A DNA stretch of 54,543 nt from an uncultured Flavobacteriales bacterium. GTDB lineage: Bacteria > Bacteroidota > Bacteroidia > AKYH767-A > 2013-40CM-41-45. Positions 2,677-44,243 of the stretch are shown piece after piece. A program made the position numbers and the translations under genes. The stretch is taken from NCBI GenBank assembly GCA_964356415.1, contig CAYHHK010000009.1, positions 1 to 54,543 on the forward strand, written 5' to 3'. The notes below the pieces were generated by a model. The model ran no database searches and was not told where the DNA came from. It saw nothing but the letters and a program-made list of their open reading frames with translations. Every line of letters begins with the position of its first letter. Position 1 is the first letter of the stretch.

Positions 2677-2685
2677 AATTTAGTA

Positions 2686-25061: not shown

Positions 25062-28000
25062 TTATCGTTTACAATGTTTCATTAATTCTTCAACTGCTGA
25101 ATCGGAAATATCATACTGCACTGTAGGCCCACCTTCCGGTACCCATCCTGCTTTTTCGATATCGGCATCACTCCAATCAACGGCTACATCATTGGGGCCA
25201 TTCTCCATTCCGCTGGACATGTAGGAGTTTTCTTCTGTCACCCTGGCTCCGCCGGAGTAAAGAATCGCAACTTTCCTTGCCCGGGAAATGGCGGTGTACT
25301 TTAGATTTTGCCTTTCGTAAGACCAATCAGCACCTTTCCACTTTTTCATTTTCAGGTTGTTCTTGCTTTCCATATCCTTCCAATCAACCAAAGCATACTG
25401 AAATTCGGATCCTTGCGCCTTGTGTGAAGTGACGGCGTATCCGTAATCAATATTTTTCTTCGTTTCAGTAGCAGCACCGCTGAAAATAAGACGATCAAAT
25501 TCTGTTTCGCCATTGGCATCAGCTTTGAATAATTCAGCATTTGAAACTCTCCAGGCAGACATTGGTTTGACTTCATTCTTATAACCATAGATACTTTCCG
25601 GCAATTGAAGCACTCGCAAAGTATCGTCCAGAGTGTTTTTAAATGATTCGCGTAATCTCCAATCAACCTTTTTATCGTAGGCTTTCAGGGATAATTCATG
25701 AATCGCTTTAAACAATTCTGTATTCACCCCCGGAGAAGTTGTTGGTATAAACACTCTGAATTCTTCAACATTGTCGCCGGCCTCCATATCGGTTTCAATC
25801 ATACGAAGACTGTAACCAACTGCTTTGAAAACCTGCCCTGCTACTTTAACCGGTCTTTCTGTTTCAAATGTAGATTCAACAACCTGGTAATCTTGCCCAT
25901 TGGAAATTTGAGACTGATCAGTTACCTGATCATAACCCATGATAGTTTCACCAACCTGATACGGGATGCGGCCTTTGTCTTCCAAAAGCATTGCACGCAC
26001 CTGTGAATTGTAGTCTTGCACAGCCCTATTGGTATAGGCAATAATTTTAGCATAAGATTTATTTTCTGCATACTCTTTTGAAGTAAACAATTCACGGATT
26101 CTGTCGATGAATTTAACCTGGGTATTCAAGAATTCGACGCCTTCTCCTTTACTGTTAATAGTCGTGGTGTGTGCGAACTGATCAGCAATCTTTAACAGGT
26201 TCTGGCGAATTGTTGTTGCAATCTCCAAAATCGGATTACCATCTGTCTGCCGTTCAATTTTGGTTAGGTTCGCTGATTGTGATTGACTTAATGCACTGCT
26301 CAACGAATTGTCAAATTTACCCGGAGGTGGAATCTGTGCCGGGTCACCCATGAAGATAACCTGACAACCTTTTTGTGCGGCAGTTCTGATGATGGTATCG
26401 GCATCCTCGGTGTTAACCATGGAACCTTCATCAACAATAATCAATGAACCTGAAACGAATTTCTTGCTCCCGCCGGATATCCATTGTTTGTCAACCAATT
26501 GTTTACTTAACAGACTCGCAACTGTATTGACATCTTTCCCGGCCATGAATCCAATACCTTTTGCACGACGAATCATTCTACGCAAAACTTTTGCTGCGCG
26601 ATGTGTTGGTGCTGCAAGGATGATACTGGGCACACCCCGTTTGGCTTCATACAGTTTGACATACTGCAGTAAAAATTTCACAATAGTTGACTTACCTGTG
26701 CCGGCATAACCGGTTAAAGAGAATCCAACTTGTTTGTGATTTGTGTAAAAGTCTGCCATTGCTTGCAATGCGACTTTTTGTTCAGGATTCAGCGCGATGT
26801 TTTCAGTATCAATCTTGATTCCATCAGCAAACTCGAAGGAATTGGCAATGGGATTGTCCAGATTCTTTATACCCTCGTGGGTCATTGGCCCCAGTTCAGC
26901 ACTGGCTATTGCAAGAATCGCTTTACGATCACCATTGTTTTCATCCCAAGCCATAAGACGGTCAGTTTTTGAACTGAAAATTTTAATCCCGTTTTCTCTC
27001 GATGCAACAACTGTGTAACTACTACCACGATAATCAACAACAGTACTTTGATGATCGTTTGCAAATGACAAATCAGAACCTTTTACCCAATCTTTCTTCT
27101 CGCTGTTATTGTCGAGACTCATTAAAAAGTAATCACCATTGACGTCACTTCTTCCAGAAACCACATAAGGTTTACCCTGGTATGTTACTACTGATCCTTT
27201 TGGGTAAATATCTTTTTTCGCTTTTTCAGCAGCAAACGGTTTGATGGTTTTTATTGGATTACCGACAAGTTCAAATTGAAATTGTGTGTACCCGTCTCCT
27301 TTTATGCGATTATAACCTTCTGCATCCCACCCTTCCAGTTTGCTCCACTCTTCAGCAGTTACATTCTCTACGGGATATGAGTCTGAAGTAGCGCGAACCA
27401 TTGCTACTCTTCCATATTGATCTTCAAATTTGATCAATTCGCCAACCCGCACATCTTTTTGTGCTTGCCGGCTTCTGGAAGTTGCTGTTCTGTCTCCGGA
27501 TAAAATTAAATCCATTGTAGATGCTCCTGCAAATTCTGGACGCATTTTTCTACCACCGGTACCATCCGTAAAATTCATCGGCATGTGGTGCGCAATTTCG
27601 TTAGATGGTGCAACTTTCTTCTGAGCAAACTCACTTCTCAACTCCATGAGTATCCTGGAAAACTCTCTTGACCAGAAAGCGTCGTTACCACCGTGGGTAA
27701 TTTTCTTGTCACCGGTTTCCAGAAGTTCCTCAATCGCTGAAGAATTCGCTTCGAAGGACATCCTCATGGCCTCTTTCATCATCTTGATGTTGTAGCCATC
27801 AGCTTTGTTTACAGTCTTGCCGCTGATCTTTGTACCGGCTTTGCTCCAATCACCCTTGTAAGTTGTTTCGTCAAAGGCGCCGGATTTCCATGTCTGATAA
27901 TAATGCTCGACAGAGAAATATTTCTTTCCGTCTTTTCCAAAGAAAGGTCTGATTGCCAGATTGCTGAGATTTGCATTCTTCCCGGATGAGTGCCACACAT

Positions 28001-31000
28001 GGACTGCATCATCGTTGTTTACTGAATAGGTTCCGAACAGATTAATCGAATGTGTAAGTCCTTCCGCCAGTGCAGAATTGTGTCGGATATTCATTCCGAA
28101 TGATTCCATCAGGTCTGTGAACGCTTCTTTAACTTTTTCCCAGAGTGTTGTAGTAGTGCCGGGGATTGTAATCGTATTGAGAAATTCTCTGAACGTCGGG
28201 TCTGTCAACACCATTGTTGCAAACTCTTGAATATTTTGTATTCCGTAGAATTTCTTTACTGATTCCGGATCCATTTGTGCAATCAATTCTTTAGCGGCCT
28301 GGGTGTCAGTTTCTTTAATTACAGAGTATTCGTTCAATGTTTGCGCAAACTTTGCAAATGCTTTGGATAATTCAGCATCATTTGATATAACATTTCTTGC
28401 CTGATTCATTACATTGATAATACCCTGTACCGCCGTTGCTTGCGTTTCAGTCAAGTTGAACTGCTCAAGGGTTTTTCCTGGGGCCTTAGATTCAAGAAAG
28501 GCCATGTAATTCACAATACTTGTTTTGGTAAGTGCGTGAATTACTTCGTGTAACAGTGTTTTCTGAACGTCTCTTACTGATTTGGTTTCACCGAGTTTAG
28601 TCGTGTTGATAACCATTTGGTGATTATCTGAATGGTAACTTCCTGAAGACCGATAATCCTTAACAATTTCCAGCTTTAATCCTGGTTTGAGGCTGGATAA
28701 ATTCGGTAAAATCTTAATAGCAAGTGCTTTAAGTGAAGCATCTGAAGATGATGTTGCAATTTCCTGTACAATTTTAATCAACTGTGCATTGCCATCGATG
28801 GAGTTTACGAACCCGGCTTCAGCCAGGTACTCTTCTTTGGAGATAGGAATCTTTTCGGCGGATGGATTTACTTTCGGAGCCTCGAAGGTTGTCTTCGCCG
28901 GGGCTGTCGAGTATGTCATTCCAACCTTATTCTGCGCAATGTTCGAGACTGCAGGTACAGTTGCAGGAAGCGCGCTGTTGTATTCCTTCATTCCGAATGC
29001 ACCAAGAGTTTCAAGTCTGACGTATTCTTCACCATTGTATTTGAACAACAGGGCTTTGTTTCCTTTTACTCCTTGCGGATTGTAAAGTGTAACGAAGATT
29101 GGGTAAACAGTTTCGCTTACCTTGTGGTCTTTCAATGCCTGGACACTCAATTTAAAGCGGGTCATCAGCATTGGATTTGCATTATCTACATCATACAGGT
29201 TTGAGCGTTTCACAGAATTGCCATACGAATCTTTTTCAGTGCGTGATACGTCATGATCCGATAATTTGAACTTTACATCGGTGGCGTTGTGCTGAATGTA
29301 CTGGGTCACGAACTGGGAAACTTCCCAGTATTTTGAACCTTCTGCCGGCATTTTGAATATTCCCAAACTGTCTATGGTACTTTTATTCTGAAACAGGCTG
29401 TTGAGATTACTCAAGAATCCCATGGACATCAAATAGCTTTGTGGGATGTATTTTACAAACTGAACGGCCTCTTGTATTCCACCAGACAGATAAATACCGG
29501 CTATGAGTTCCTGTGCAAGTCTGCGGGTATCATAGGCTACACCGTTAAACTCCACACCCAGGTCAACGGGATTCAGAATCATGTCGGTAAAGGCGTTGAA
29601 AGTATCGTTGCTGAAGGCGGCATCTTTTGGAGCAGCCTGCGTTTTAATCATGGTTGGATAACCCTGGTTGCCATCCTTTACTTCAAGCATGGAGATAAAT
29701 GGATTGTTTTTGCCGTATTCGGTTTTCTTCAAAGCCATCACCAATTGTCCAAGCGGTTTGTGCAGATAGACATCCGGGGCCGGGGTAATAGTAAATCTAT
29801 CTTCGGCAACACCGTTTTCTGACATCTGCTGTTCCTTGCGGGTAATATTAAATATTTTACCATCCACAACAAATACACCGGATGCACCTTCAACTTTTAA
29901 TCCAATCCAATCAGTACCCTGTTTGTTTTTCCATACCTCGATAGAATTCCCGTTGGCTACCATTGCTTTTTGCTCCGGGGTTAAATTCACATTGGAGACA
30001 ATTGGTGCGCCATTGGAAGAGTATCTGAAGAATAACCTGCGACGTTCTGCGCCAGCATCGTCAGTGAACAGATGCATACTTGAAGATGCGAAAAGATAGG
30101 ACTTCATCGAGTTCCATAATTCAGTTCTTTGTTCAAGTTCCGCTGTGGTGGACTCGTTATCGATTCCAATTACTCTGGAAAACTCGGTAAAAATCTGCTG
30201 GATTGCAGGATGTTTGTAAGGAAACAAATCACTCCACAATCTGTTGTTGGTAGTGAGTGCGTAGGCAATAGCCTGACCATTCAGGGTTTCAGGTTTAAAT
30301 CTGATTCCGGTGGTATTCATTTCATCAACCTCACTCAAGTCTACAAAAGAATTTTGCTCATCTGGTGTCAACGCGTTGTAAGCATCTCTCTGTTCCTGAA
30401 TGGCAAGATTGTATGCGGTGCCAAGAAGTTTGCCGGCATTCTCTACTGTGGTCGAACCAAACAGACTCTCTGCTTTTTCTTGTTTCAGTATCGATTCAAT
30501 GATACTTTTACCCATTCCTTTTGAGTCAACATTAACAGCAACCTGCACATGTTGCAGTTGTTTACCGTACTCGTCAAGCATCTGAAACTTTTCCAGGATA
30601 GCAATTTGTGTAAGCACGTAGTCGGCGGATGCCTCACCGTTGGTGATCATGTCGATCATCCTGGTGTTGGAAAGTTCGCCTTCTGCTTTTCCCTGAAGCA
30701 TTAATGTACGCTGAAGGAAATCTGCTTCAACATATTCTTTGTTGTAATATTTACTTTTCGGATCCTCAATCAAATCTCGCATGGCCTGACCAACCTTATC
30801 TGGTGTGAACCCGGAGACTGTTGAACTCAACTGGGCAAGTCGTTTAACATAATCAATCAGGATATCCTGCTGGATAAAATTCAGCGTCTCTTCACCAAAC
30901 CCTAGCTGATTCATCAGCTTGACGGTTTTAAAAGTGTACTGATTGATATGGAGCAATCCGAGAATCTGCAATTTCTCGTTGTCAACAGATGCGGATTGGT

Positions 31001-34000
31001 ATCCGGCGATGACGTCGGAAATATAATACTCGCCATCAGCATGTTCCGAAGCGCCGAGTGTTCTTTCGCGGTTTAGAAACCCTTTGGAAGAAACTGAACC
31101 GAATGAAGTGTGCAGATAACGCAGCTTGTCAATGGTTTCTTTCGGGTCAACAATAACTCGTAATCCATCAACTCTCTGGGCCAACGCGTTGAACACGTTG
31201 TCGAGACTAAAAACAGAGATACCATCCTTGCCGGCTACAGCGTTTAAGAATTTAGTACGCTGGTAAGAATCTGAAAGCCCGCTGAAGAAAGGAACTTCTG
31301 CAACAGTCCCTGGTTCGGTGCCACGCGCACCACGTAAAGTTTGAAACTGCCCCGCCTTGTCAACAAGAATCCATTCCCCAAGAGGGTTGGCTACCTGGTT
31401 TTGCACAGCGGGATCAGAATTCTGCATGATGGCCATGTGGACATCCATGATATTGTTCTGCAAAGTTTCTTTCCCTGGTTTGGTTGACCTGGTGAAACTA
31501 TGCTGACCAGTTTCAGAATCGAAATTATGTGTACGATTGTACATGTAAGCGTACAATTTATCAATGTCGAAGTCCATCCCGGTTTGTGTAACCAAATCTG
31601 ATGGGCCTATGATTGTATTTCCGGATTGATTTGGAAGGAATCCGACGATTTCTGCCCAGACATGTGAATTCAATCCCTGGTTCGGGATACGCATCATCAG
31701 CGCCGTGAGAATATCTGACGGTAATTTTGCAGGATCAATTTTTCCATTGCTCATGAAGTTTTTAACATCGAGCAAATTCCCTTCTTTGTCATGGAAATTC
31801 CATGATACCAGAATCTGTGCCGGTAAAATTTTTCCAGTAGCGGGGTCTTGACGTTGTGGTTGTAGCACACCGCCTTTATAATTCTGTGTGTGGATTATTC
31901 CGGTGATTTTCGCAAGTTCTGCAGCACCGTCAGTAGTATCGGAAGCAATAATCTTTGTGGTATATCCGGCATCCGTGGTTGTAACCCAGGAATCTCCGAA
32001 CATTTTACTTTTACGAATCCTGTTATCCACGATGGAATTAAGCAGGGATTCGAATTTATCAGCAGAAGGTGAGAAAGCAATGGTGTCGATGTATTCGTTC
32101 AAACCAAGCATTTCAAGTTCCGGCAACGGATATCCCCGCATCTCGGCCTCGTCCTGGATAATCGTTTTGATTTTGTTTACATCAGGCTGGCCATCGGCGT
32201 CCAGGATTTCTGCAAGGAATTCCCTCTGATGCAGCTTGAAGAGTTCATCGTAATACTTAAAGTACTCGTTCTCGAGTTCTTCACCGGTATATTCTTTTGT
32301 CTGCCCCGGGATTTTAAATCCTTTGACGCGAAGAAGATTGACGAACAGGTTTTTCGAAGCCTGGGTTACACGATTGATTTCGTGCTCAAGCGCGTGGTAA
32401 GGTACTTCCTGCTGAATTCCAAAATACTTTCTCGGAAGAGTCATCACGGTGCCGGAGAAATCAATCTCTTTTGGATTCTTGATTGATCCATTTGCATTAA
32501 AAATCGTGGTAGGATTACGTGGCCCGCCAACCTTGATGGCTGACATAAAGGCTACGCGCTGTACACCCTGGTTCTTCATCGCTATGCGAAGGTTGTCCAG
32601 TTCAAGACCCTGCACCAGTTTAGGTAACAATGCCGTGGCTGAACTCTTGATATAGAATCTTTTGTAGATTCCATTGCTGAATATGTTCCCGGCGGATACC
32701 GGTTTCGATGGCTGGAAAATTATGTGCTGTAATTCTGCCGATAAATCTTCAGCATTTTCATTCACAAATCCCTGCTTGTCAAGCTGACGTTCCTGCTCGG
32801 TGAGGATTCTTGTAGCGGATGCAAATTCTGCATCGCTAAGTTTACCCTGTTTACGCATGATGTGCAACGCTTCCTGCCAGGAAACAAACTCCTGACCATC
32901 AGTGCTGGTAATACCCGCATATTTTTTAGCGAGTCCCGGGCTTAGTCTGGCTTTGTAAGCAGCAAGTTGTGAAGAATCAACACTGTAGTCTTCAACAATC
33001 GCCTGCGTGTAGGTTTCTTTCTGGCTATCTGCGATTTCATTGCGCGGGGCAATGTCTGCAGCAAGACGTTTACCTACGTTGGTAAACAAATCCTGCATTT
33101 CAGTGATCCGGTCTGTAGGTGTAAAGTGCTGACGATACAACTCCTCGGATGTCATCTGTGCAATTTCGACAGCATCAAATCTTTTACTTTCAATCAGGCG
33201 TTTAATAACAGCGTGTTCAGTTGCAGTACGCCCACCTTTTACCTTTGCGTAAGTCGCCGGGTCACCAATGTACATCATGTACGCGTTGGCATTGCCCACC
33301 AGATACTGAACAACCATATCCTGTGCTGCCATGCGAATCTTTTTGGATTCTTCCACGGATGCAACAGTCTTATTATCTTCAAGGAATTCCTTATCGATGA
33401 AAGCGTTCTTTGTTTTCTTGTCAGATTTGCCGATGCCAAAAGTATCCCATTCTGCAGATTTCTGATCAACCAGGGTATTGATGTGTCTGGCCAGAACCTC
33501 TTTGATTTTGGTTTTCATTTCGGTACTCTGCGCTTCGTCACTCAACATGCCATCTTCGGTGAACAACTCATTCATGTTGTTTAACTCCGGGATGAAATGG
33601 AACTTCGAGGCCATGGCTGCATACCCGTCAATATTGTAAGTTTGGTTTGCGTGGCCAGCCTTCAGTGCAGCCTGGTACTGAACTATGCGTTCAATTTCCG
33701 GAAGCACCATCACTTTGTAAAGATTCTCAAGAGCATTTTCAGTCAATGCTCCTTCAGGAGTAACATCAAACATGAATGCTGGCACCTGTAATCCCACGAC
33801 AGTTTTCTTGTCTGACGTCGTGGGGAAAAACAAACGGATAACCCTGTTGTTATTTCCGGACTGATCCGCACTCGGGGACTGCAGATAAGCAATTTTGATG
33901 AATTCGATATCAGCTTCCGGGAGTGTAGGCAGATCATTGTCCTTTTTATTGGGCATGTCGATATTCTTAACCGGTTCAATACTGTTGACCCAGTAATAAA

Positions 34001-37000
34001 AATTCGAAAATCCTGTTCCCTTGGTGGCGATGATGTACTCACCGTTCTCTGCTTTGATTGGTTTCCCGTCGGCGTCTTTCAGGAACATATCCTGGAGCCA
34101 GGTAGAGTGACGATTGAACATCGTCTTATCATATAGATTGGTAGTCAACGTGTTTGTGAATACTTCCTCTTTTGTTTTGACGTTTCTGGACTTATTCAGT
34201 CTGCGAAATTCCTGGGTTTGTGTGGAGATTAACCGGTTCCGGCTAAAAGTTTGAATCGTTTTGCCACGAACTCTGTGCGAATTACTTGCAACCTGATCAG
34301 TAAAACGTGAAGCAAACAAAGCCAGATCTCCGACAACCTTTTCTTTGGTGATTGGGTTGTTGTCTTCCAGGGTGCTTGCTGATCTGTTCTTTACGTTTTG
34401 GTTTAAGATGAAGAACAATCCGTTATTGTTGGTCAGCATGAAACTCAAACTCTGCGGTTGATTACCACGAATGAATCTGCCATCCATTAAGGCATCCAGG
34501 GTATTTGGCGAAAGTTCAATCCCAAACAGGTTTAAATATTCTGACACATCTTCCCTGCTCGGTAATTTCTTGTCTGTACCCTTATAGGCGTCCACCATGC
34601 GCTGATATGTTGCTTCGATGGCTACTCTGCCATCAGCAGAATAAACTGCGCTACCGGGGTTGTCAAGTGGTTCTATTACGAATTCTTTTGACATCAAATT
34701 GTCAGTCCAGTTGCTTTTCAGTGCAGCACCTTCGGCAAACGCATTGCTTGCAGTATCCCGAAGAACATACTTACCGGATTTATCAGTACTCCACATGATG
34801 AACCGAAGAGACATAAAGTGCCCGGTCATGGCATGAACAAACTGATTGCGCAATTGCGTGTCACCGCTTTCAAGCAACGCTACTACATCAGCAGCCCACG
34901 GGTGATGTACTGCCATTTCGTTTTTCAGGAAATCCCGCATGACGATATAATCCGAAGGCAATCCTTCAAGTACCTTTTGCAGTGTATTGAACACTTCATC
35001 AAAAGGTTTGAGTTCCTGGATTCCCAGATAGTTCAGTTTGGGTGAACCATCTTCTTTATACGCCTTGACGGTGGTAAGCATTCGCTTTACCAACACGCCG
35101 GCACTATCCTTTGCATCGTAGGAGAATTCACTGTATTCACTCCAATCATTTTGTTCAGTGCGTTGTGATTCTGCCTTCTCTTCCGAATCTTCAGAATTCA
35201 ATTCCGCAAGTTTCTGACGTTTCGTGGTCAGTTTGAAGTTGTGCGCTTCTTCTGATGGTTTGGAATCAAGATGCGCATTACCGAGTTTGCTTAATGATCC
35301 TTCAGTAAGCGTGACAAGTTGTGCCCAGTTGTCAAGTAATTCTTTATAAGTGGCAGCTTTCAATGTAAATTTATCCACTGAACCCCAATCCTCATTTTTA
35401 GTTGCAGCTTCAATATTGCGAAGCATCTTTGCATGAAGTTCAGTAAACTTTGCTTTGTATTCATCAAAGATTGCTGTAGCATTGATTGCTTTCTTTCCGC
35501 TTTTGAATAATCTGTTCAAGACTTCATTCATCATCATCCCGGTAACAGCCATCTGCTTACGTGCCCCTAATGCTTTAATCAGGTAGGTTCCAGTATTCTG
35601 GGCCATTTCCTGGCTATTCTGGTCAGTGTAATCAGGAATATCTTCCGTGATTGTCGCAGAATTATTGTCGGATCCGGCGTTAAATTCGCCTTCATCTTCG
35701 TATTCTATTTGGGTAGTAGCGGGTTCAGATGACTGTTCAGTTTCTTTGCCAACGACATTCACTTCCGTCAATGATTGCCCAGCAACGGGCTTTGCTGAAC
35801 TGGGAACAACAGTAGTTGCTGCTTCCGCAGGGTCTTCAAATGTGATAACTGGTTGCAGTGTGTATGACCAGACTTTCTTTTCTTCAGTACCCACGTTTGA
35901 CCCTACAACATTCGTTGTCGTCATCCTGGTTGCAAGTTCCCGGTATGGCATCATAGTCGGTTTATCCTCAAGAGTCATCAACACTACCGGAGTATTTTCA
36001 GAAACATGCGCAGTATTCATTGCAAAACGAACTCCTACGTGACTTTCGCTAACCAAGAAGCCTTCAGGTACAGAGGTAGTTACACCATTGGTAACTTTAT
36101 TAACCTTGACAAACAGTGCGTCAAGTGTTTTTTCATTATGCTCATCAGATGTATTGTGTGATGCAAATTTATGATCAAATCCCATACCTCGGGAGAATTC
36201 CAGATTACCATTCTTCATTACAACGACAGGAATATCACTTCCAATAGAGGCTCCACCACCATCTGTATTCAGATACCCAATTTTAGAAGCCTGTCCTAAT
36301 CCATTGGAACGCATCAACACATCGGAATTGCCGATGTTGTAATTGTTGATGAACATTTCCATGTACTGTGCAATACCTTTCTGGGTTAAGATATCGATCT
36401 TTGACTTTTCTCGTATGGCTTTTGCGAATCCGTTGATATCAGTCTTCGAAAGATAGCAGGCCATTGCTGCACGAATTGAATACGCGATAGTACGACCCAA
36501 TTTAGAATCTGCAAGTTTCGTGTTGGTGATTGCAATTGCAGCGTAGATGGGTTGTTTTGTTTCATCATTGAATCCAACAGGAACAACAACGTAACTCCAA
36601 CCATTTTTAATTTCGGTGTTCAACAATTGCCCATCAAAAAATTTATCCTGGCCACTACCCAGCGCAAGCCTGTCACCTTTACCTACGGCAAGAATTAAAT
36701 TCTCGTCTGGCATCAGATCGAATACTGATTTCTTTTCGCCACCAACGGTTTTGAAAAGGTATCCAATGGATTTTGATGTGACTTTGGTTTTAACCGTGTT
36801 GCCTTTGGATTTTTCTGCAAGGATATGACTGCGAAGATTTAAATTTTTCGCCCTGTCTTCTTTTACCTGATCTGTAGTGCCGGCAACATTCTCTGCTTTT
36901 ATCCAGCTTGACGCGTGAACTGCAGCTACTGCATTACCTTCCGGGCCAAGAATCTGTATGGGAACATTCTCTTTATACTCACGCAGTTGCGTGATGTCCT

Positions 37001-40000
37001 GTCCTTTGTAGGTATCGCGTAACCGATTTTTGTACTCTCCCCACTTGATAGTAACTTTACCATCAGTGCCAGGATCGTAAATATCTGCGGTATCGTCGTC
37101 CTTTACATTGAAGGAAATTTCAGTACCGGGTCTGAATTTGCTGATATCCATCAGTTCCCGGCTAATACTGTTACGCATTTCATTGGTATGCTCTTCACGT
37201 TTGAAGGAGAACCCTTCTTTGATTGTAGCGTAAGTACGTGCAAGGTAAGCCATGATGACAGAACCTTTCGAGACTCTTTTGTAGTCATAAGCTACGGTAC
37301 TGTTTTCGCTTTGGGGATCACCGGAATCCGCTGCTTCAATTACTGAACGCAAGTTTGCTTCCTGCTCAAGTAACGCGCCTTCATACTCTGGCCCCATTAC
37401 CTGACCATTGACGATGCCAGCAGCTAATCTTTCCTGGGTTTCAAGTTCCTGCTCTTCATCTTTGGTAGCAGTGAGAATTTCTGAATATTGTTTCCACCCA
37501 AGTTCCCCAAGCTGCTGCGAAGTTTCTTTAATCGCTGCACGATCTTTGTCGACAGTTTTCGCCAGGTAAGATGACTTGAATGACGGGAATAATTCCTGGG
37601 CTATTTCAACACCACGTTGTTCACCGTATTTGCTTTTATAATATGTTTCAGCCTGAATCATAATATCTGACAGCGAAACTGATCCATCACGTTTGATTAA
37701 ATGATCCATGATGGCAGACATCATTTTCCATGCAGCAAGCTGACGATCTTCTGCAGATGGTGGGACAGGTTGTGCAACAGTTTCACCTGGGTCAATGTCT
37801 TCGGTTATACCAGAGATTTCAGCAAACCCGTCAAACATCGTATTCAATTCTGCATCTGCTGCAAACATTGCGTGGATATCTCCGGCAGCTTCATCAGGTG
37901 TCACTGGTTCAACAACAGGATTAACAACTGGTGCCACTGGCGCCGCAGTCCCCGCTGGTGTTTGTGTCCCGGGAGTAGTTTGAGTGTTGACGGCTCTTGG
38001 TGCTGGTTGTCCAGTTTGTGCTGGTTGTGCAGCAGAAAATGGTGTGGATGCTTTAGTTACGGTAGATGCCGGAGTTGCTGTCGCTGCAGGTGTCGCTGTA
38101 TTATTCTTAGAATTCTTTTTGGCTTTGGTTGCAGCAGTACGTTGTGCTTTTTTATTTATAGTTCCGCTTTTAACACCTGCTAAACGAGTTTCAAGTTTAG
38201 TTTGTGCTTGCGAGATCATGCTTTTTAAATCTTCAAACGCTCTATAATCGTACCTTTCTTTATTCCCAAGTTTGGATAATTTTGCAATTTGTTTTTTAAT
38301 CGCAGATTCAGAAGTTGCTTTTTCTCCAGCTTCTAAAATTGTCTGCATTTGAAGTACTCCGTTTTGATACGCGTGACTGGATTTTTTACGCAATGTGTAC
38401 TTTAACTCGCTGGCTTGTTCACGAATTTCGTCAAAGTTTTGATTCGCCTGCAAGAACTCCTGGTATTCCTGTGACTGTTCAACCAAGTCTCCGGAAGTAT
38501 CTGGTAACCAGCTTAAAATTTCTTCAACCCGTGTTGATAAATCTTTCCACCCATAATGAACAGAGTTTTCAAGTTTACCCTTTTCCGCCATAATATCTTC
38601 GTGAAGTTCCACGAAAAGATTATTTACAGTTACCTTTTTGTCATCAGTGAGTAAACTACCTTCAAGCGTAGAATTCACAACGTCTGAAAGTTTAGAAACA
38701 GCTTGCTTCAGTTTAATAGACGACGGTTCCGCGTACTTTTTAATGATATGGATGGTTTCATCCAACAAGAACAACTCCTGGCTATTGGGTCTGCCAGAAT
38801 TGGCTACCCAGGCTTTCTTCATTCTCTGAACTTCTTTCGAAATTTCCCTGGCTTGCGCCGCTTTCTCACCACTTCCCGAACTCACATCTGCTAACAGGTT
38901 TTCAAAATTCTCGATGGTTCCTTTTTGCAAATTTTCTGCAATCAATGGAAGCAATGTCATGTGCTGTACCACTGTTTCCATATCGGAGTTACCTGAAGCA
39001 ACAGCTTCCTTCAGCATATCCTGGGACTGCTGATAAGAATCCATTTTATTCTCAAAGTAATCCTTGTTGATTTTAATCAAATCCTGTTGGGAATCGTAAG
39101 CTTCCTGTTCACGTTGTTTTGCTTTAGCTCCATATCCTTTACCAATAATTTTGGATACAACATGCTGCGGGTAACCTCCAAGTGCACCCATCAATCCTTC
39201 AGTCAATGCCTGTGGGGATGTCGCATATTTTGACATTCTGCCAAGTAAACTTTTACTATAGGTTCTGGGGTTAAGCAAATCAGATGATTCCCCTGATTGA
39301 GCAACACCATTTACCACGGGATGTTCAACTCCTGACCAACGCTGGCCCATAAATTCACCTTCATTCTGCATTACGTTTTGCGTGATTTCTTCTACACCCT
39401 CTTTACCAGCTTGAAGAAGAGCATTGTCTGCACTTAATTTTGTGAGATTCCTGCCAATTTTTTGAGCACCTTCGTAAAACCCTTTGGTTGGTTTTTCAAT
39501 CATCCCTGCCAACATATTCTTCCCGGAAAATACTCCGCGAACCTGGATCATGTCTGCCCACAGATTACTGGCATTTGCCAAACGAAAAGTAGTCGCGGCT
39601 TTCGCAGCATTGTCAGATACTTCCCGAAACCGCTTTTGTAAGGCTTCGTCTGCATCTTTGTTTATATCTTTAATCATACTCTGTAATTCTTCGGGAGTAT
39701 AATTATCAGCTACTTTCATTAACTCATCAACTCTTGCGCCAGCCTCCATCTTCATTTGCTCATCATAAGCTTTCAACTCCGGAGTCATTTCACGCATCAC
39801 GTTGTTGTACAATCCGTGAGCCATTGTACCGCCTTCTATGAAATTCATGGTAACACCGGCACCGACTTCTTTCGCTACTTGCTGGAACGCTGGACGCAAT
39901 GAATTAAAAGCCATTGCTCCTGCATTGCCTGTAAGCGCATTGATTCCTTTTCCTACAAGACCCGCTGCACCGGTCATCAAAGCCATTTGACCCATTACTC

Positions 40001-40607
40001 CACCAACGGATTCAAGCGTACCTTCTGCTGCTGTAAACATAAAGCCGGCACTAAACTCTGGCCCGCCATCAGAACCGGGTTTTTGACGTTGGGGTAAACC
40101 AGCATCAATATTTTCCCGCATTTTTCCCAATGCATTCATAGTAACTGTGCGAAGCCCGTTATTGTACGCCTCTTCTAACGCGCCTATTTTCAGTAGAGAG
40201 TTTACTTCATCATCACTTTTTGTTGCAAAATTTGGTACTATTTGCATCACACCTTCAGCAATAAAAATTGGTATTTTTAAGGCAAGCTGTCCAAACATGT
40301 TTCCAGTGCGATCCCACAATCCCTGCTTATCATACAATTCCTGTTGGTAGTCTTCTTCGGTTTTATCAGCAGACATTTTAATCCCATGCCCGGCTAAAAT
40401 TTCCGATTCCCAACTTCCACCAAACATTCCCGGTTTCCAATGGTCTGTGAAACTGCGTGTACCTTCACCGAGAGTTTGTACAAACTGATCACCGTTTGGC
40501 GCAACAGGTTGTGATGCTTGTCTTCTTGATACTTTAGGGTCTGCTTGAAAAGGGGCGGGGCCTGTTAAGCCGGTCATTGGGTCTATTTCCTGATATTCGT
40601 CAGCCAT
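25062..40607 (-). CDS. Giant multidomain protein (5181 aa): putative virion-packaged RNA polymerase-like core fused to polyvalent-protein-type domains
   Basis: This is an uninterrupted 15,546-nt ORF. Individual domains are listed as separate features. Its position after the tail and cargo genes parallels the ejected giant proteins of podoviruses and crAss-like phages. Confidence 0.9.
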   Translation of the reverse strand: MADEYQEIDPMTGLTGPAPFQADPKVSRRQASQPVAPNGDQFVQTLGEGTRSFTDHWKPGMFGGSWESEILAGHGIKMSADKTEEDYQQELYDKQGLWDRTGNMFGQLALKIPIFIAEGVMQIVPNFATKSDDEVNSLLKIGALEEAYNNGLRTVTMNALGKMRENIDAGLPQRQKPGSDGGPEFSAGFMFTAAEGTLESVGGVMGQMALMTGAAGLVGKGINALTGNAGAMAFNSLRPAFQQVAKEVGAGVTMNFIEGGTMAHGLYNNVMREMTPELKAYDEQMKMEAGARVDELMKVADNYTPEELQSMIKDINKDADEALQKRFREVSDNAAKAATTFRLANASNLWADMIQVRGVFSGKNMLAGMIEKPTKGFYEGAQKIGRNLTKLSADNALLQAGKEGVEEITQNVMQNEGEFMGQRWSGVEHPVVNGVAQSGESSDLLNPRTYSKSLLGRMSKYATSPQALTEGLMGALGGYPQHVVSKIIGKGYGAKAKQREQEAYDSQQDLIKINKDYFENKMDSYQQSQDMLKEAVASGNSDMETVVQHMTLLPLIAENLQKGTIENFENLLADVSSGSGEKAAQAREISKEVQRMKKAWVANSGRPNSQELFLLDETIHIIKKYAEPSSIKLKQAVSKLSDVVNSTLEGSLLTDDKKVTVNNLFVELHEDIMAEKGKLENSVHYGWKDLSTRVEEILSWLPDTSGDLVEQSQEYQEFLQANQNFDEIREQASELKYTLRKKSSHAYQNGVLQMQTILEAGEKATSESAIKKQIAKLSKLGNKERYDYRAFEDLKSMISQAQTKLETRLAGVKSGTINKKAQRTAATKAKKNSKNNTATPAATATPASTVTKASTPFSAAQPAQTGQPAPRAVNTQTTPGTQTPAGTAAPVAPVVNPVVEPVTPDEAAGDIHAMFAADAELNTMFDGFAEISGITEDIDPGETVAQPVPPSAEDRQLAAWKMMSAIMDHLIKRDGSVSLSDIMIQAETYYKSKYGEQRGVEIAQELFPSFKSSYLAKTVDKDRAAIKETSQQLGELGWKQYSEILTATKDEEQELETQERLAAGIVNGQVMGPEYEGALLEQEANLRSVIEAADSGDPQSENSTVAYDYKRVSKGSVIMAYLARTYATIKEGFSFKREEHTNEMRNSISRELMDISKFRPGTEISFNVKDDDTADIYDPGTDGKVTIKWGEYKNRLRDTYKGQDITQLREYKENVPIQILGPEGNAVAAVHASSWIKAENVAGTTDQVKEDRAKNLNLRSHILAEKSKGNTVKTKVTSKSIGYLFKTVGGEKKSVFDLMPDENLILAVGKGDRLALGSGQDKFFDGQLLNTEIKNGWSYVVVPVGFNDETKQPIYAAIAITNTKLADSKLGRTIAYSIRAAMACYLSKTDINGFAKAIREKSKIDILTQKGIAQYMEMFINNYNIGNSDVLMRSNGLGQASKIGYLNTDGGGASIGSDIPVVVMKNGNLEFSRGMGFDHKFASHNTSDEHNEKTLDALFVKVNKVTNGVTTSVPEGFLVSESHVGVRFAMNTAHVSENTPVVLMTLEDKPTMMPYRELATRMTTTNVVGSNVGTEEKKVWSYTLQPVITFEDPAEAATTVVPSSAKPVAGQSLTEVNVVGKETEQSSEPATTQIEYEDEGEFNAGSDNNSATITEDIPDYTDQNSQEMAQNTGTYLIKALGARKQMAVTGMMMNEVLNRLFKSGKKAINATAIFDEYKAKFTELHAKMLRNIEAATKNEDWGSVDKFTLKAATYKELLDNWAQLVTLTEGSLSKLGNAHLDSKPSEEAHNFKLTTKRQKLAELNSEDSEEKAESQRTEQNDWSEYSEFSYDAKDSAGVLVKRMLTTVKAYKEDGSPKLNYLGIQELKPFDEVFNTLQKVLEGLPSDYIVMRDFLKNEMAVHHPWAADVVALLESGDTQLRNQFVHAMTGHFMSLRFIMWSTDKSGKYVLRDTASNAFAEGAALKSNWTDNLMSKEFVIEPLDNPGSAVYSADGRVAIEATYQRMVDAYKGTDKKLPSREDVSEYLNLFGIELSPNTLDALMDGRFIRGNQPQSLSFMLTNNNGLFFILNQNVKNRSASTLEDNNPITKEKVVGDLALFASRFTDQVASNSHRVRGKTIQTFSRNRLISTQTQEFRRLNKSRNVKTKEEVFTNTLTTNLYDKTMFNRHSTWLQDMFLKDADGKPIKAENGEYIIATKGTGFSNFYYWVNSIEPVKNIDMPNKKDNDLPTLPEADIEFIKIAYLQSPSADQSGNNNRVIRLFFPTTSDKKTVVGLQVPAFMFDVTPEGALTENALENLYKVMVLPEIERIVQYQAALKAGHANQTYNIDGYAAMASKFHFIPELNNMNELFTEDGMLSDEAQSTEMKTKIKEVLARHINTLVDQKSAEWDTFGIGKSDKKTKNAFIDKEFLEDNKTVASVEESKKIRMAAQDMVVQYLVGNANAYMMYIGDPATYAKVKGGRTATEHAVIKRLIESKRFDAVEIAQMTSEELYRQHFTPTDRITEMQDLFTNVGKRLAADIAPRNEIADSQKETYTQAIVEDYSVDSSQLAAYKARLSPGLAKKYAGITSTDGQEFVSWQEALHIMRKQGKLSDAEFASATRILTEQERQLDKQGFVNENAEDLSAELQHIIFQPSKPVSAGNIFSNGIYKRFYIKSSATALLPKLVQGLELDNLRIAMKNQGVQRVAFMSAIKVGGPRNPTTIFNANGSIKNPKEIDFSGTVMTLPRKYFGIQQEVPYHALEHEINRVTQASKNLFVNLLRVKGFKIPGQTKEYTGEELENEYFKYYDELFKLHQREFLAEILDADGQPDVNKIKTIIQDEAEMRGYPLPELEMLGLNEYIDTIAFSPSADKFESLLNSIVDNRIRKSKMFGDSWVTTTDAGYTTKIIASDTTDGAAELAKITGIIHTQNYKGGVLQPQRQDPATGKILPAQILVSWNFHDKEGNLLDVKNFMSNGKIDPAKLPSDILTALMMRIPNQGLNSHVWAEIVGFLPNQSGNTIIGPSDLVTQTGMDFDIDKLYAYMYNRTHNFDSETGQHSFTRSTKPGKETLQNNIMDVHMAIMQNSDPAVQNQVANPLGEWILVDKAGQFQTLRGARGTEPGTVAEVPFFSGLSDSYQRTKFLNAVAGKDGISVFSLDNVFNALAQRVDGLRVIVDPKETIDKLRYLHTSFGSVSSKGFLNRERTLGASEHADGEYYISDVIAGYQSASVDNEKLQILGLLHINQYTFKTVKLMNQLGFGEETLNFIQQDILIDYVKRLAQLSSTVSGFTPDKVGQAMRDLIEDPKSKYYNKEYVEADFLQRTLMLQGKAEGELSNTRMIDMITNGEASADYVLTQIAILEKFQMLDEYGKQLQHVQVAVNVDSKGMGKSIIESILKQEKAESLFGSTTVENAGKLLGTAYNLAIQEQRDAYNALTPDEQNSFVDLSEVDEMNTTGIRFKPETLNGQAIAYALTTNNRLWSDLFPYKHPAIQQIFTEFSRVIGIDNESTTAELEQRTELWNSMKSYLFASSSMHLFTDDAGAERRRLFFRYSSNGAPIVSNVNLTPEQKAMVANGNSIEVWKNKQGTDWIGLKVEGASGVFVVDGKIFNITRKEQQMSENGVAEDRFTITPAPDVYLHKPLGQLVMALKKTEYGKNNPFISMLEVKDGNQGYPTMIKTQAAPKDAAFSNDTFNAFTDMILNPVDLGVEFNGVAYDTRRLAQELIAGIYLSGGIQEAVQFVKYIPQSYLMSMGFLSNLNSLFQNKSTIDSLGIFKMPAEGSKYWEVSQFVTQYIQHNATDVKFKLSDHDVSRTEKDSYGNSVKRSNLYDVDNANPMLMTRFKLSVQALKDHKVSETVYPIFVTLYNPQGVKGNKALLFKYNGEEYVRLETLGAFGMKEYNSALPATVPAVSNIAQNKVGMTYSTAPAKTTFEAPKVNPSAEKIPISKEEYLAEAGFVNSIDGNAQLIKIVQEIATSSSDASLKALAIKILPNLSSLKPGLKLEIVKDYRSSGSYHSDNHQMVINTTKLGETKSVRDVQKTLLHEVIHALTKTSIVNYMAFLESKAPGKTLEQFNLTETQATAVQGIINVMNQARNVISNDAELSKAFAKFAQTLNEYSVIKETDTQAAKELIAQMDPESVKKFYGIQNIQEFATMVLTDPTFREFLNTITIPGTTTTLWEKVKEAFTDLMESFGMNIRHNSALAEGLTHSINLFGTYSVNNDDAVHVWHSSGKNANLSNLAIRPFFGKDGKKYFSVEHYYQTWKSGAFDETTYKGDWSKAGTKISGKTVNKADGYNIKMMKEAMRMSFEANSSAIEELLETGDKKITHGGNDAFWSREFSRILMELRSEFAQKKVAPSNEIAHHMPMNFTDGTGGRKMRPEFAGASTMDLILSGDRTATSRSRQAQKDVRVGELIKFEDQYGRVAMVRATSDSYPVENVTAEEWSKLEGWDAEGYNRIKGDGYTQFQFELVGNPIKTIKPFAAEKAKKDIYPKGSVVTYQGKPYVVSGRSDVNGDYFLMSLDNNSEKKDWVKGSDLSFANDHQSTVVDYRGSSYTVVASRENGIKIFSSKTDRLMAWDENNGDRKAILAIASAELGPMTHEGIKNLDNPIANSFEFADGIKIDTENIALNPEQKVALQAMADFYTNHKQVGFSLTGYAGTGKSTIVKFLLQYVKLYEAKRGVPSIILAAPTHRAAKVLRRMIRRAKGIGFMAGKDVNTVASLLSKQLVDKQWISGGSKKFVSGSLIIVDEGSMVNTEDADTIIRTAAQKGCQVIFMGDPAQIPPPGKFDNSLSSALSQSQSANLTKIERQTDGNPILEIATTIRQNLLKIADQFAHTTTINSKGEGVEFLNTQVKFIDRIRELFTSKEYAENKSYAKIIAYTNRAVQDYNSQVRAMLLEDKGRIPYQVGETIMGYDQVTDQSQISNGQDYQVVESTFETERPVKVAGQVFKAVGYSLRMIETDMEAGDNVEEFRVFIPTTSPGVNTELFKAIHELSLKAYDKKVDWRLRESFKNTLDDTLRVLQLPESIYGYKNEVKPMSAWRVSNAELFKADANGETEFDRLIFSGAATETKKNIDYGYAVTSHKAQGSEFQYALVDWKDMESKNNLKMKKWKGADWSYERQNLKYTAISRARKVAILYSGGARVTEENSYMSSGMENGPNDVAVDWSDADIEKAGWVPEGGPTVQYDISDSAVEELMKHCKR
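25260..26800 (-). other. RecD/Dda-like SF1 helicase domain (C-terminus of the giant protein)
   Basis: Motifs seen are LNPEQKVALQ, Walker A GYAGTGKST, AAPTHRAAKVL, IIVDEGSMV, IFMGDPAQIPP, YAVTSHKAQGSEF and YTAISRARK. Confidence 0.85.
27265..27560 (-). other. ASCH/PUA-like beta-barrel domain (tentative)
   Basis: RPEFAGASTMDLILSGDRTATSRS...VGELIKFEDQYGRVAMVRATSD...EEWSKLEGW resembles the ASCH pattern (il.G.KT.E.R...... Gd.i.f). Confidence 0.35.
27625..28015 (-). other. NADAR (DUF1768/YbiA-like) domain
   Basis: VHVWHSSGKNANLSNLAIRPFFGKDGKKYFSVEHYYQTWK...LLETGDKKITHGGNDAFWS...SRILMELRSEF matches the NADAR pattern (fSNf...pF..dG..y.svEhyfQa.K ... Ll.Tg...l.E....D.yWG ... LmevR). Confidence 0.6.
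28400..28700 (-). other. Zincin-type metallopeptidase motif region (HExxH)
   Basis: The sequence is SYHSDNHQMVINTTKLGETKSVRDVQKTLLHEVIHALTK, with HEVIH at nt 28536-28550. It resembles the metallopeptidase modules of phage polyvalent proteins. Confidence 0.5.
31560..31697 (-). other. RNA polymerase beta-prime-like double-psi beta-barrel segment with a DxDxD metal motif
   Basis: MMRIPNQGLNSHVWAEIVGFLPNQSGNTIIGPSDLVTQTGMDFDIDKLYAYM aligns by eye with bacterial beta-prime [47 protein letters not shown]. The R-x-P to DFDxD spacing is 39 versus 35 residues. Confidence 0.45.
37885..38155 (-). other. Low-complexity Thr/Ala/Pro/Gln/Val-rich linker in the giant protein
   Basis: The tract is KKAQRTAATKAKKNSKNNTATPAATATPASTVTKASTPFSAAQPAQTGQPAPRAVNTQTTPGTQTPAGTAAPVAPVVNPVVEPVTPDE. 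It is locally GC-rich and produces several spurious antisense ORFs. Confidence 0.8.
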
Positions 40608-42744: not shown

Positions 42745-44243
42745 TATGGCGTTGTTTTTTCTGTTCCTATATGTTTTGCATCCTGATACTTACCGCGTTT
42801 CTGAAGAATCTTTTCAAACTTATCCGGGGTAACAGGTTTGTTGTCCACTTCCATTACTGTTTTACCTTTGACCTGATAAACAAGCATTCCGTAAGCTGGA
42901 GATTGTGCATTGATCATTCTGTTTCCAACACGTTTAGCAACATACCCTGGCTGGGAAGTAAATCCCATCGTGTCCATTTGCTGATTGTACGCCATCGTGT
43001 CTTTCATGGCACCCATTGCTGTGTCACCAAGTCCACCCATGTAATTGACAAGTGCTTGGGTTTTACCGGTTCTTGCGTTGGCATTGAGTTCGTCAATCTG
43101 CATTTTGCGTGCAGCTTCCTGTTGGAGTAATGCAGCATTGCGCTGATTGAACTCATTTGGATTGTTCATTTTATTCTCTTCCTGGGCAAGTTTGGCAACA
43201 CCTTGGGTGTAACCTAAACCGGCTTGTGCCGCATACGCTGCATAATTTGCAGGATCATTGCCACGAGCATTGCGCAGATAATTATTGGTTTGTTCACGCA
43301 GATCGCGTTTGTCACCGGTTAAATCAGTAGTCTGAAATTTCGGCATCTGAGTCTGATCATACGCAATCTGTTCCGGCTTCTGTAAAAGGAAAGGAAGTTG
43401 TGCGAGTGCACTTACACCTTTGCCAACCATTCCTGCGATCATTTCAGGAGGTAATGAATTATTTTCAGGAACCTGTTGCTGCTGCCCCGCTGAAGGTTTA
43501 TATAAAGTCGGTTTATTGTATGTTAATCCGGCAGGAGTTGCAGTGGTGCCGGGTTGTAATGATGTCCCCGGTAAAAATTTGGTGGACGTTGCTCCATTGC
43601 TAACCATGTTTACAGTCTGCGGAGCAACTCCATAAGCATTCGGCATTTGTCCATACATTTCGGATCCTGGTAAATAATCTCCCCAACCAAGTTGTGGAAG
43701 ACCGCCACCCATTGCTTTAACAGGAACCATTAAAGGATTAGTCTGAACATACTGTAATCCACCAACTTTTGTTTGGCCAGTGTCTGTACGAATAGTAGGA
43801 GCCGTTTTAAATTCAATTCCGGTATTGTTTAAATTCCCGGCAACTTGCCCAACGGCTTGCAGTACAGTGTTGTTGGTAGTTTTTGTAGTTACTCCATTGT
43901 CTGCAAGTAACTTACTGTTCAATACAGGATTGGAATATCTGCCCCATTTATTACGCTGATCGAGACTATAGTTTGCAGAATCTGCATTGGCAAAACGAAC
44001 TCTTGCTGTGGGATTTGCTGCATCAAACGGATCAACTGGGCCACCAAAGGCCATCTGTTGTCCAACCATCTGCTGTTGCATCTGTTGTTTTACCGCTTCC
44101 TGTTCTGCCTGGAGTTCTTGTAGTTCACGATCTTGTGATTTTTTGGACATGGCGTCGTATTTACCGTCACCTAATCTGGAAGAGTACCTTTTTATGATCT
44201 GGTTTGCTCTATCGGCAAACGTAAGTTGTTTATTTTTAGACAT
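42744..44243 (-). CDS. Gln/Gly/Pro-rich virion-type hypothetical protein (499 aa)
   Basis: It abuts both neighbouring genes. The N-terminus is coiled-coil-like and the middle has Q/G/P-rich low complexity. Confidence 0.75.
   Translation of the reverse strand: MSKNKQLTFADRANQIIKRYSSRLGDGKYDAMSKKSQDRELQELQAEQEAVKQQMQQQMVGQQMAFGGPVDPFDAANPTARVRFANADSANYSLDQRNKWGRYSNPVLNSKLLADNGVTTKTTNNTVLQAVGQVAGNLNNTGIEFKTAPTIRTDTGQTKVGGLQYVQTNPLMVPVKAMGGGLPQLGWGDYLPGSEMYGQMPNAYGVAPQTVNMVSNGATSTKFLPGTSLQPGTTATPAGLTYNKPTLYKPSAGQQQQVPENNSLPPEMIAGMVGKGVSALAQLPFLLQKPEQIAYDQTQMPKFQTTDLTGDKRDLREQTNNYLRNARGNDPANYAAYAAQAGLGYTQGVAKLAQEENKMNNPNEFNQRNAALLQQEAARKMQIDELNANARTGKTQALVNYMGGLGDTAMGAMKDTMAYNQQMDTMGFTSQPGYVAKRVGNRMINAQSPAYGMLVYQVKGKTVMEVDNKPVTPDKFEKILQKRGKYQDAKHIGTEKTTP

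Follow-up and report, generated by a model that had tools for sequence, protein, structure and literature searches.

A NADAR domain built into a giant crAss-type virion RNA polymerase: a candidate pre-made base de-ADP-ribosylase

Introduction

The human gut virome is dominated by crAss-like phages, which are also common in the environment, yet to our knowledge little is known of how they evade host immunity. A contig of 54,543 nucleotides, binned with an uncultured Flavobacteriales bacterium (assembly GCA_964356415.1, contig CAYHHK010000009.1, positions 1 to 54,543; this whole stretch is called the window below), bears on that question. A sequence-only reading of the window had recognized a NADAR domain at nt 27625-28015, in a protein thought to be ejected from the virion, and had proposed that the domain counters toxins that ADP-ribosylate DNA. 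Is the segment a NADAR domain, is its carrier delivered by the virion, and what would an injected NADAR be for? We find a His-type NADAR domain within a homologue of the crAss-like virion RNA polymerase (RNAP), and we weigh the possibility that it protects phage nucleic acid from the outset of infection.

Identification of the NADAR domain

The segment lies in a single uninterrupted open reading frame (ORF) on the minus strand, 25062..40607, that encodes 5181 amino acids (aa). On this strand nt 27625-28015 corresponds to residues 4198-4328, so that the position first proposed brackets a real domain almost exactly. The domain and its key codons are as follows.

27600..28028, minus strand: NADAR domain of the short His-type, aa 4194-4336 (Pfam, phmmer, profile, AlphaFold2, Foldseek)
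27906-27908, minus strand: codon of Glu4234
27885-27887, minus strand: codon of Lys4241
27693-27695, minus strand: codon of His4305
27672-27674, minus strand: codon of Trp4312

The sequence of the segment contains, in order, VHVWHSSGKNANLSNLAIRPFFGKDGKKYFSVEHYYQTWKSG and later ETGDKKITHGGNDAFWSREFSRILMELRSEF, and the motifs SNLAxRPF, SVEHYYQTWK and THGGNDAFW are read in it.

When the segment alone was compared with the PDB by phmmer, it matched E. coli YbiA (2B3W, E = 1.1e-4) and the NADAR protein of Phytophthora nicotianae (PnNADAR; 8BAU, 3.6e-3), with no other credible match. Homologues were collected by a region-restricted search with the whole giant protein, which was far richer than a word-based search with the isolated 146-aa domain (one protein only, P0002) and returned 31 proteins of 2976-6937 aa. 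A segment homologous to the window NADAR is present in 21 of these 31 giant homologues (phmmer), and 15 such segments were aligned to build a profile and an AlphaFold2 model. Pfam NADAR is matched by all 15 aligned relatives (best 1.9e-20), and seven of them also match PF08010 Phage_30_3, the family of T4 gp30.3 (best 6.4e-6); the window segment itself gave no PF08010 match at E up to 0.01.

The profile of the 15 relatives matched 2B3W at 7.2e-17 and 8BAU at 2e-13 in the PDB, spanning the whole domain. The model of the domain has a predicted local distance difference test score (pLDDT) of 82.5 and a predicted template modelling score (pTM) of 0.79, and its fold agrees: in a Foldseek search of the PDB the only matches were 2B3W (E 8e-6, TM 0.66) and 8BAU (3e-4, TM 0.60), the next lying at E = 1.6. 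Matches of the model in BFVD were giant proteins of the crAss-like phages cr131_1, cr272_1 and cr130_1, and also annotated NADARs of phages and giant viruses. No match for the segment was found among the PADLOC models. Because the profile, the Pfam matches of all relatives and the AlphaFold2 fold point the same way, we regard the assignment to the NADAR family as secure and far beyond coincidence, notwithstanding a single-sequence Pfam score below threshold (see Discussion).

NADAR enzymes carry a catalytic Glu and Lys seven residues apart: E43/K50 in PnNADAR, E88/K95 in DarG1 (PMC11543638) and E36/K43 in T4 AdfN (PMC11825919). A third active-site position, in the last strand, is Glu in the YbiA family, Asp in DarT1-linked/BC4488-family NADARs and His in phage NADARs of the gp30.3 type (PMC11125620; PMC11543638). 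In the window domain Glu4234 and Lys4241 lie inside SVEHYYQTWK with the same seven-residue spacing as in PnNADAR and T4 AdfN, and Thr4304-His4305 stand at the end of the last predicted strand, with Asp4309 and Trp4312 after them. The register in which His4305 aligns with PnNADAR Glu125 is uncertain by one residue; Thr4304 aligns with the Glu of YbiA.

Conservation was assessed across 93 unique related modules from giant proteins and IMG/VR loci. Glu4234 and Lys4241 are invariant, Asn4216 of the SN motif is kept in 93/93, His4305 in 92/93 (99%) and Trp4312 in 89/93 (96%). Among the outcomes named beforehand as refutations were a profile search that misses NADAR and a lack of conserved catalytic residues; the profile search recovers NADAR, and the catalytic residues are conserved. 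The modules fall into a short subclass, with 68-79 residues from Glu to His, and a long subclass, with 81-101; the window copy is short. The adenine and pyrophosphate of ADP-ribose are bound in PnNADAR by a loop that includes K75, G78, R79, Y84, W89 and R93, and in the trimmed loop of the window domain only a Gly (G4258, 82/93 modules) and nearby lysines are retained. Compared with the consensus of the 93 modules, the window copy deviates at N4203H, A4236Y, Q4287A, P4289S and P4317S.

The carrier protein

Residues 2619-3024 of the giant protein are homologous to the RNAP core of phi14:2 gp66, and the catalytic DFDID lies within this core at aa 3012-3016 (nt 31560-31574). This motif marks the virion RNAP of all crAss-like phages, and the corresponding gp66 motif is 1361-DFDID-1365 (bioRxiv paper). 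Judged by this core and motif, the carrier is a homologue of the crAss-like virion RNAP. The ORF matches PHROG 16227, 'virion structural protein', at 6e-70. It and the genes upstream of it are as follows.

25062..40607, minus strand: giant ORF, crAss-type virion RNAP with a C-terminal train of accessory domains in the style of polyvalent proteins (uninterrupted frame, domain matches, PHROG 16227)
31536..32753, minus strand: RNAP core, aa 2619-3024, homologous to phi14:2 gp66 (phmmer, PDB 6VR4, E = 1.3e-19)
40618..45113, minus strand: three ORFs of 708, 499 and 289 aa without family matches, flanked by the muzzle gene and the giant ORF
45233..49327, minus strand: crassvirus muzzle protein gene, upstream and in the same direction (PF25731 crAss_MUZ, 1.2e-178)
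49334-50089, minus strand: tail ring protein 1 gene (PF24228, 6.8e-23)
50586-51317, minus strand: tail ring protein 2 gene (PF25702, 1.5e-28)

Since the muzzle gene lies upstream in the same direction, the giant ORF belongs to the virion/cargo block. By position, the three ORFs between them would correspond to the PhicrAss001 cargo proteins gp45/gp46 (gene order compared with PMC10172136). The homologue phi14:2 gp66 is carried in the virion, enters the host and there transcribes the early genes, and it transcribes single-stranded DNA (ssDNA) in vitro (bioRxiv paper). Mass spectrometry of PhicrAss001 virions detected the RNAP-associated giants gp47, gp49 and gp50, which are modelled to traverse the tail partly unfolded; by estimate, one virion could accommodate ~6 copies of each RNAP-associated protein (PMC10172136). 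The virion-delivered carrier of the sequence-only reading is upheld to the extent that the protein is a homologue of an injected crAss polymerase; from homologues and gene order only, we infer on good grounds that the window protein is itself packaged and ejected.

For the first ~2600 residues (aa 1-2618, nt 32754-40607, minus strand) no significant Pfam or solved-structure match was found, and for the first 1800 no PHROG match either; a T/A/P-rich low-complexity stretch lies at ~aa 820-900. When 7.9 kb around the site was compared by Megablast with 50,697 phage records there was no match, and a pattern search of IMG/VR found no close relatives of the C-terminal 1032 aa, so that the window represents a phage without a close sequenced relative. 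The most similar NADAR module, at locus L002, is 51% identical.

Domains flanking NADAR

The last 1200 residues hold, in order, a zincin-like HExxH segment, NADAR, an ASCH domain, a segment of ~150 residues and a Dda-like helicase.

28527..28655, minus strand: zincin-like HExxH segment LLHEVIHAL, aa 3985-4027 (weak SprT-like Pfam match, E = 0.0015-0.009, below cut-off)
27252..27599, minus strand: ASCH (PUA-like) domain, aa 4337-4452, directly after NADAR (AlphaFold2 pLDDT 93.8)
26811..27251, minus strand: beta-rich segment between ASCH and helicase, aa 4453-4599 (no significant Pfam match, no homologue among the 31 giants)
25257..26810, minus strand: Dda/RecD-like superfamily 1 (SF1) helicase, aa 4600-5117 (AAA_30 3.8e-26, AAA_19 1.6e-19, UvrD_C_2 4.5e-7)

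By parallel with the metallopeptidase (MPTase)-RNAP fusions of N4-type virion polymerases (PMC5512222), the HExxH segment may be such a peptidase. The best Foldseek match of the ASCH model is YqfB, an ac4C amidohydrolase of E. coli (9KYF, 8e-5), and the ASCH structures 3S9X and 5GUQ are also matched, all with probability 1.0; a weak Pfam ASCH match was seen in 5/11 relatives. Twelve other giant proteins hold a homologous ASCH module, whose position varies. NADAR adjoins ASCH in P0005 and L060 too, in the order opposite to that of the window.

The helicase matches PHROG 325, Dda-like helicase, at 3e-71, and its motifs are intact (GTGKS, VDEGSM, GDPAQIPP, TSHKAQGSE, YTAISRAR). At least 11 other giants hold NADAR and an SF1 helicase in one ORF, with NADAR preceding the helicase in P0017, P0018, P0023, L008, L010, L046, L047 and L081 and the helicase first in L076-L078. 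Other partners were seen in two carriers in which a polymerase was undetected: in the 4043-aa ORF L042:144-12272 an AlkB-like 2-oxoglutarate (2OG)-Fe(II) oxygenase (3.8e-11) lies 48 residues downstream of NADAR, and the 2775-aa ORF L035:4523-12847 holds both NADAR and a cpYpsA SLOG domain (1.8e-28).

Distribution of related modules

Exhaustive profile searching of 1.84 billion representative proteins gave 13,896 relatives with E no higher than 1e-3, of which 1,984 reach 1e-10 and 511 reach 1e-30. Large carriers prevail among the best 150 representatives: 86 have at least 1000 aa and 47 at least 3000 aa, and only 13 have fewer than 300 aa. At least 151 IMG/VR loci encode the module, and 80 of these were fetched and analysed. 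The module lies in ORFs of at least 700 aa at 59 of the 80 and in small ORFs, mostly of ~131-150 aa, at the other 21. At 27 fetched loci the DFDxD motif is found in the same frame as the module, and 26 of these also match the crAss polymerase core (phmmer). In many crAss giants NADAR stands 800-1200 residues past DFDxD; in others it is N-terminal. The short form of NADAR is also free-standing, as proteins of ~131-152 aa, in 17 viral contigs.

Modules ~43% identical to that of the window, among its closest relatives, are found in P0007, P0008 and P0011, metagenomic proteins whose carriers are N4-type virion polymerases (Pfam N4_RNAP_helical 3e-35, vRNAP_dom 3e-26). The N4-type enzyme is a T7-like single-subunit polymerase unrelated to the crAss polymerase. 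In these three proteins and at locus L009 the module sits in the N-terminal third of the N4-type polymerase.

In a quick FastTree phylogeny, whose support values are unchecked, the window module groups with the short-type crAss copies L002, L008 and L010, and this group adjoins the N4-type and free-standing copies, separate from a large clade formed by long-type crAss copies. The split between short- and long-type crAss copies suggests at least two captures of NADAR by crAss polymerase genes. The census indicates that NADARs of the related His-type are mostly built into giant injected proteins, in two unrelated lineages of virion polymerase. Among cultured phages the best match is in the jumbo-size Bacillus phage AgentSmith (MW749006.1, 46094-46807, locus L190): gene 46, annotated as a 'putative toprim domain-containing protein', has at its end a NADAR module that is 40% identical to that of the window and immediately precedes a tRNA cluster.

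Discussion

The window domain most likely serves, pre-made, to strip ADP-ribose from guanine in the ssDNA or RNA of the phage. As a whole, the proposal that an injected His-type NADAR of the virion polymerase serves as a pre-made base de-ADP-ribosylase, protecting the incoming genome or the first transcripts, strikes us as evenly balanced between right and wrong. Made late and packed into the capsid, the giant protein would be pushed through the tail in a partly unfolded state, before the DNA or together with it, and would refold in the host, which would place the NADAR module in the cell before any phage gene is expressed. There it would cleave the N-glycosidic link that joins ADP-ribose to a nucleobase, the likeliest substrate being N2-ADP-ribosyl-guanine on ssDNA or RNA. 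Damage by host ADP-ribosyltransferase defences would thereby be undone where the phage first exposes single-stranded nucleic acid, and the adjoining ASCH domain and the Dda-like helicase probably assist, by binding the nucleic acid or exposing it.

The N4 virion polymerase uses ssDNA hairpin promoters. Because both polymerase types use single-stranded or melted templates and few copies are injected, action of NADAR that is local, in cis, at the entering DNA seems favoured. A more specific version, possible but rather unlikely, is that the whole tail of NADAR, ASCH and helicase is a template-cleaning device working in cis with the injected polymerase. The helicase would expose the strand, the PUA-like reader would find the modified base, and the tethered NADAR would repair the first transcribed DNA or nascent RNA; a single-stranded or melted start template would be exactly the substrate of ssDNA-specific ADP-ribosyltransferases. 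Template cleaning would explain why two unrelated injected polymerases independently captured a small NADAR.

The biochemistry of the family is consistent with a guanine substrate. All tested NADAR types, that of T4 gp30.3 among them, release ADP-ribose from guanine in ssDNA but leave it on thymine (PMC11125620); the ADP-ribosyl-thymine that the sequence-only reading had allowed as a second substrate has to be given up, since every tested NADAR leaves it uncleaved (PMC11125620; PMC11825919). NADARs including T4 gp30.3 also act on ADP-ribosylated guanosine in RNA (PMC11833690), and some act on ADP-ribosylated cytidine. In phage infections, the NADARs of T4, Bas32 and Bas60 restore growth on DarTG1 hosts (PMC11825919).

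Several observations weigh against protection of phage nucleic acid by an injected NADAR. The curated gathering cut-off of Pfam NADAR (PF08719) is 35.1 bits, and the window sequence on its own stays below it, with 27.8 bits (E = 3.4e-6) for a 251-aa piece and 29.6 bits (9.6e-7) for the 149-aa segment; within a 1781-aa piece the score is 22.9 bits. The ADP-ribose loop is ~20 residues shorter than that of PnNADAR, is without equivalents of W89 and R93, and is where AlphaFold2 confidence is lowest (pLDDT ~61). The zincin-like motif upstream could mean that the giant protein is cleaved. T4 AdfN alone fails to rescue E. coli from DarT1 (PMC11825919; PMC11125620), and activity of a NADAR in the cell can therefore depend on context.

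The host group adds to these points. The binned genome that carries the phage contig comprises 4.09 Mb in 211 contigs, and comparison of the phage contig with the other 210 revealed no spacer, repeat or other sequence match, so that the phage is linked to this host by binning alone. RpoC of the binned genome is 88% identical to those of Bacteroidia and Flavobacteriales metagenome-assembled genomes, which places it in the Bacteroidia; SusD_RagB (PF07980) was not found in it at E up to 1e-5, an unusual absence in this phylum. DarT (PF14487) was not detected in the binned genome, but control genomes also gave no signal, so that its absence is unproven. In the host's family DarT was found in one of 54 genomes, where its partner is the macrodomain protein DarG and not a NADAR. 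A class-level sample of 401 Bacteroidia genomes included 24 with DarT, and in none of the 25 DarT-positive Bacteroidia genomes in all does a Pfam NADAR lie within 10 kb of DarT, the nearest being 11 kb away (G440). At L082 (G024:C5, ORFs 1489-2046 and 2046-3101) the DarT gene (7e-53) overlaps the start of the gene for a macrodomain DarG (5M31, 2e-44); this system is of the thymine-specific DarTG2 type.

Of the proposed counter-defence role, what stands is that phage NADARs counter DarTG1 (PMC11825919); DarT1 is unsupported as the specific target. The target in Bacteroidota may be another, possibly new, ADP-ribosyltransferase, or a small molecule derived from ADP-ribose.

The last possibility amounts to a different function, in which the injected NADAR destroys small molecules that contain an N-glycosidic ribosyl bond, be they immune signals or toxic by-products, for example cyclic or histidine-linked ADP-ribose from TIR/Thoeris-type systems, and does not repair nucleic acid. 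The Aravind group has argued so for phage NADARs, SLOG-type nucleotide-binding domains lie near NADAR in some giants (such as cpYpsA in L035), and the remodelled ADP-ribose loop would permit another substrate. We nevertheless consider it unlikely: every assayed NADAR acts on base-linked ADP-ribose in DNA or RNA, phage NADARs counter DarTG1, the neighbours here are nucleic-acid enzymes (ASCH, SF1 helicase, RNAP), and the few copies expected per virion (~6 in PhicrAss001) favour local action on the entering DNA. The domain might instead serve the RNA work of the polymerase itself, by cleaning ADP-ribosylated guanines or unusual 5' ends of early transcripts, or by RNA repair. Clearance of ADP-ribose from guanosine in RNA by NADARs including T4 gp30.3 (PMC11833690), the fusion of NADAR to RNAPs of two unrelated types, the binding of RNA or nucleosides by ASCH domains, and a literature that links NADAR to RNA processing, and some NADARs to RNA-repair genes, speak for such a role. 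It appears quite unlikely all the same, as NADARs do not process ADP-ribosylation of RNA phosphate ends (PMC11833690) and Pfam and PHROG scans of the window showed no RNA ligase, KptA or 2H partner; if the RNA damage is inflicted by the host, this explanation merges with protection of phage nucleic acid. A role in riboflavin metabolism of the YbiA type was rejected as implausible for a module of an injected polymerase in which His replaces the Glu of the YbiA family.

The domain would be an enzymatically dead or purely structural remnant, such as a spacer or packaging element, if the sub-threshold Pfam score, the shortened substrate loop and the five departures from consensus (N4203H, A4236Y, Q4287A, P4289S, P4317S) reflect decay. 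This is very unlikely: the active-site Glu, Lys, His and Trp are present here and in 96-100% of the 93 modules, and the free-standing copies of the short form (~131-152 aa, 17 viral contigs) argue for a self-sufficient fold under selection. NADAR could also be the safety partner of an ADP-ribosyltransferase (ART) injected by the phage itself, reversing off-target modification of phage DNA or RNA or restraining the products of the transferase. A region resembling ART-PolyVal was found by phmmer in eight related giants, and six of these (P0020, P0024, P0025, P0028, P0029, P0164) hold NADAR in the same polypeptide. Yet a self-made ART-PolyVal profile found no such segment in any frame of the 54.5-kb contig at E up to 10, Pfam shows no ART in the giant ORF, and most NADAR-bearing giants are without one; because the profile found nothing in the window, we rate this explanation as far-fetched here.

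If the domain is active and injected, the protection of phage nucleic acid proposed above would be counter-defence delivered as protein along with the genome, attached to the enzyme by which the first genes are transcribed. The census points to a putative, widespread ADP-ribosylating threat in Bacteroidota. The significance is tempered: earlier publications cover the enzyme class, its deployment by phages and its proposed packaging in virions, and the steps beyond fold, residues and context are all inference.

Relation to known systems

AdfN (T4 gp30.3, AdfN-Bas32 and AdfN-Bas60; Johannesman et al. 2025, PMC11825919; Toxins 2024, PMC11125620) is, like the window domain, a phage NADAR with the same Glu/Lys spacing. 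Both have the last-strand His, and de-ADP-ribosylation of guanine would be the common activity; of the aligned relatives of the window domain, 7/15 match the gp30.3 model. AdfN is free-standing and separately expressed, whereas the window domain is covalently part (aa 4194-4336) of a 5181-aa product of a virion gene. In size gp30.3 has 208 aa, and the window domain has ~130 aa, with a trimmed ADP-ribose loop and no PF08010 match. AdfN counters DarTG1, but no DarTG1 is known in the host group of the window. DarG1 (Schuller et al. 2023, PMC11543638) shares the fold and the Glu/Lys pair, and its hydrolysis of guanine-linked ADP-ribose is the model for the proposed activity. It uses an Asp (D171) where the window domain has His, and it has a basic N-terminal DNA-binding extension, K115 and a gene beside DarT1; none of these is seen in the window, where the neighbours are phage virion genes.

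On the side of the carrier, phi14:2 gp66 (6VR4) and PhicrAss001 gp47/gp49/gp50 share with the window protein the DFDID motif, the core match, a gene that follows the muzzle and cargo genes, and giant size. No NADAR, ASCH or helicase is reported for gp66, which has 2180 aa; in the window the blocks are fused in a 5181-aa frame with an accessory tail of 1200 aa. A crAss-like phage of the Steigviridae (Crassvirales), cr126_1, has a NADAR in a giant protein of the transcription block: QOR59539.1 (2402 aa; MT774391.1, 5509-12717, L191), annotated as 'DUF1768 domain-containing protein' beside an RNAP subunit gene. Its module is 30% identical to the window domain and 44% to a long-type relative, and it differs in being of the long NADAR type and in standing N-terminally in a protein encoded apart from the polymerase ORF; it is known from annotation only, and no functional discussion of it was found. 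The protein is labelled VOG0154, as is a free-standing 180-aa protein of E. coli phage anhysbys.

The layout as a whole is that of the polyvalent proteins (Iyer et al. 2017, PMC5512222), which include N4-type polymerases with zincin peptidase, ART and lysozyme domains: an early polymerase, a weakly supported HExxH segment and conflict-type domains in one virion-gene product, with modules shuffled between unrelated carriers. NADAR, ASCH and crAss-type polymerases go unmentioned in that catalogue (0 occurrences). A 2022 survey proposed that virions often package proteins of the NADAR, Macro and Nudix kinds, and described viral NADARs as 'typically standalone'; it was not until 2025 that the free-standing phage NADARs (AdfN) proved able to defeat DarTG1 (PMC11825919). 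A literature search found no paper that discusses NADAR fused to crAss-like or N4-like/Schitoviridae virion RNAPs. Already known, then, are the enzyme class, its use by phages against DarTG1 (2025), the idea of a virion-packaged NADAR (2022) and the DUF1768 label on a crAss giant. New are a known counter-defence enzyme as a built-in module of a predicted injected polymerase, a mode of delivery that has been little described, and the presence of the same short module in two unrelated virion polymerases, where it recurs beside ASCH and SF1-helicase modules.

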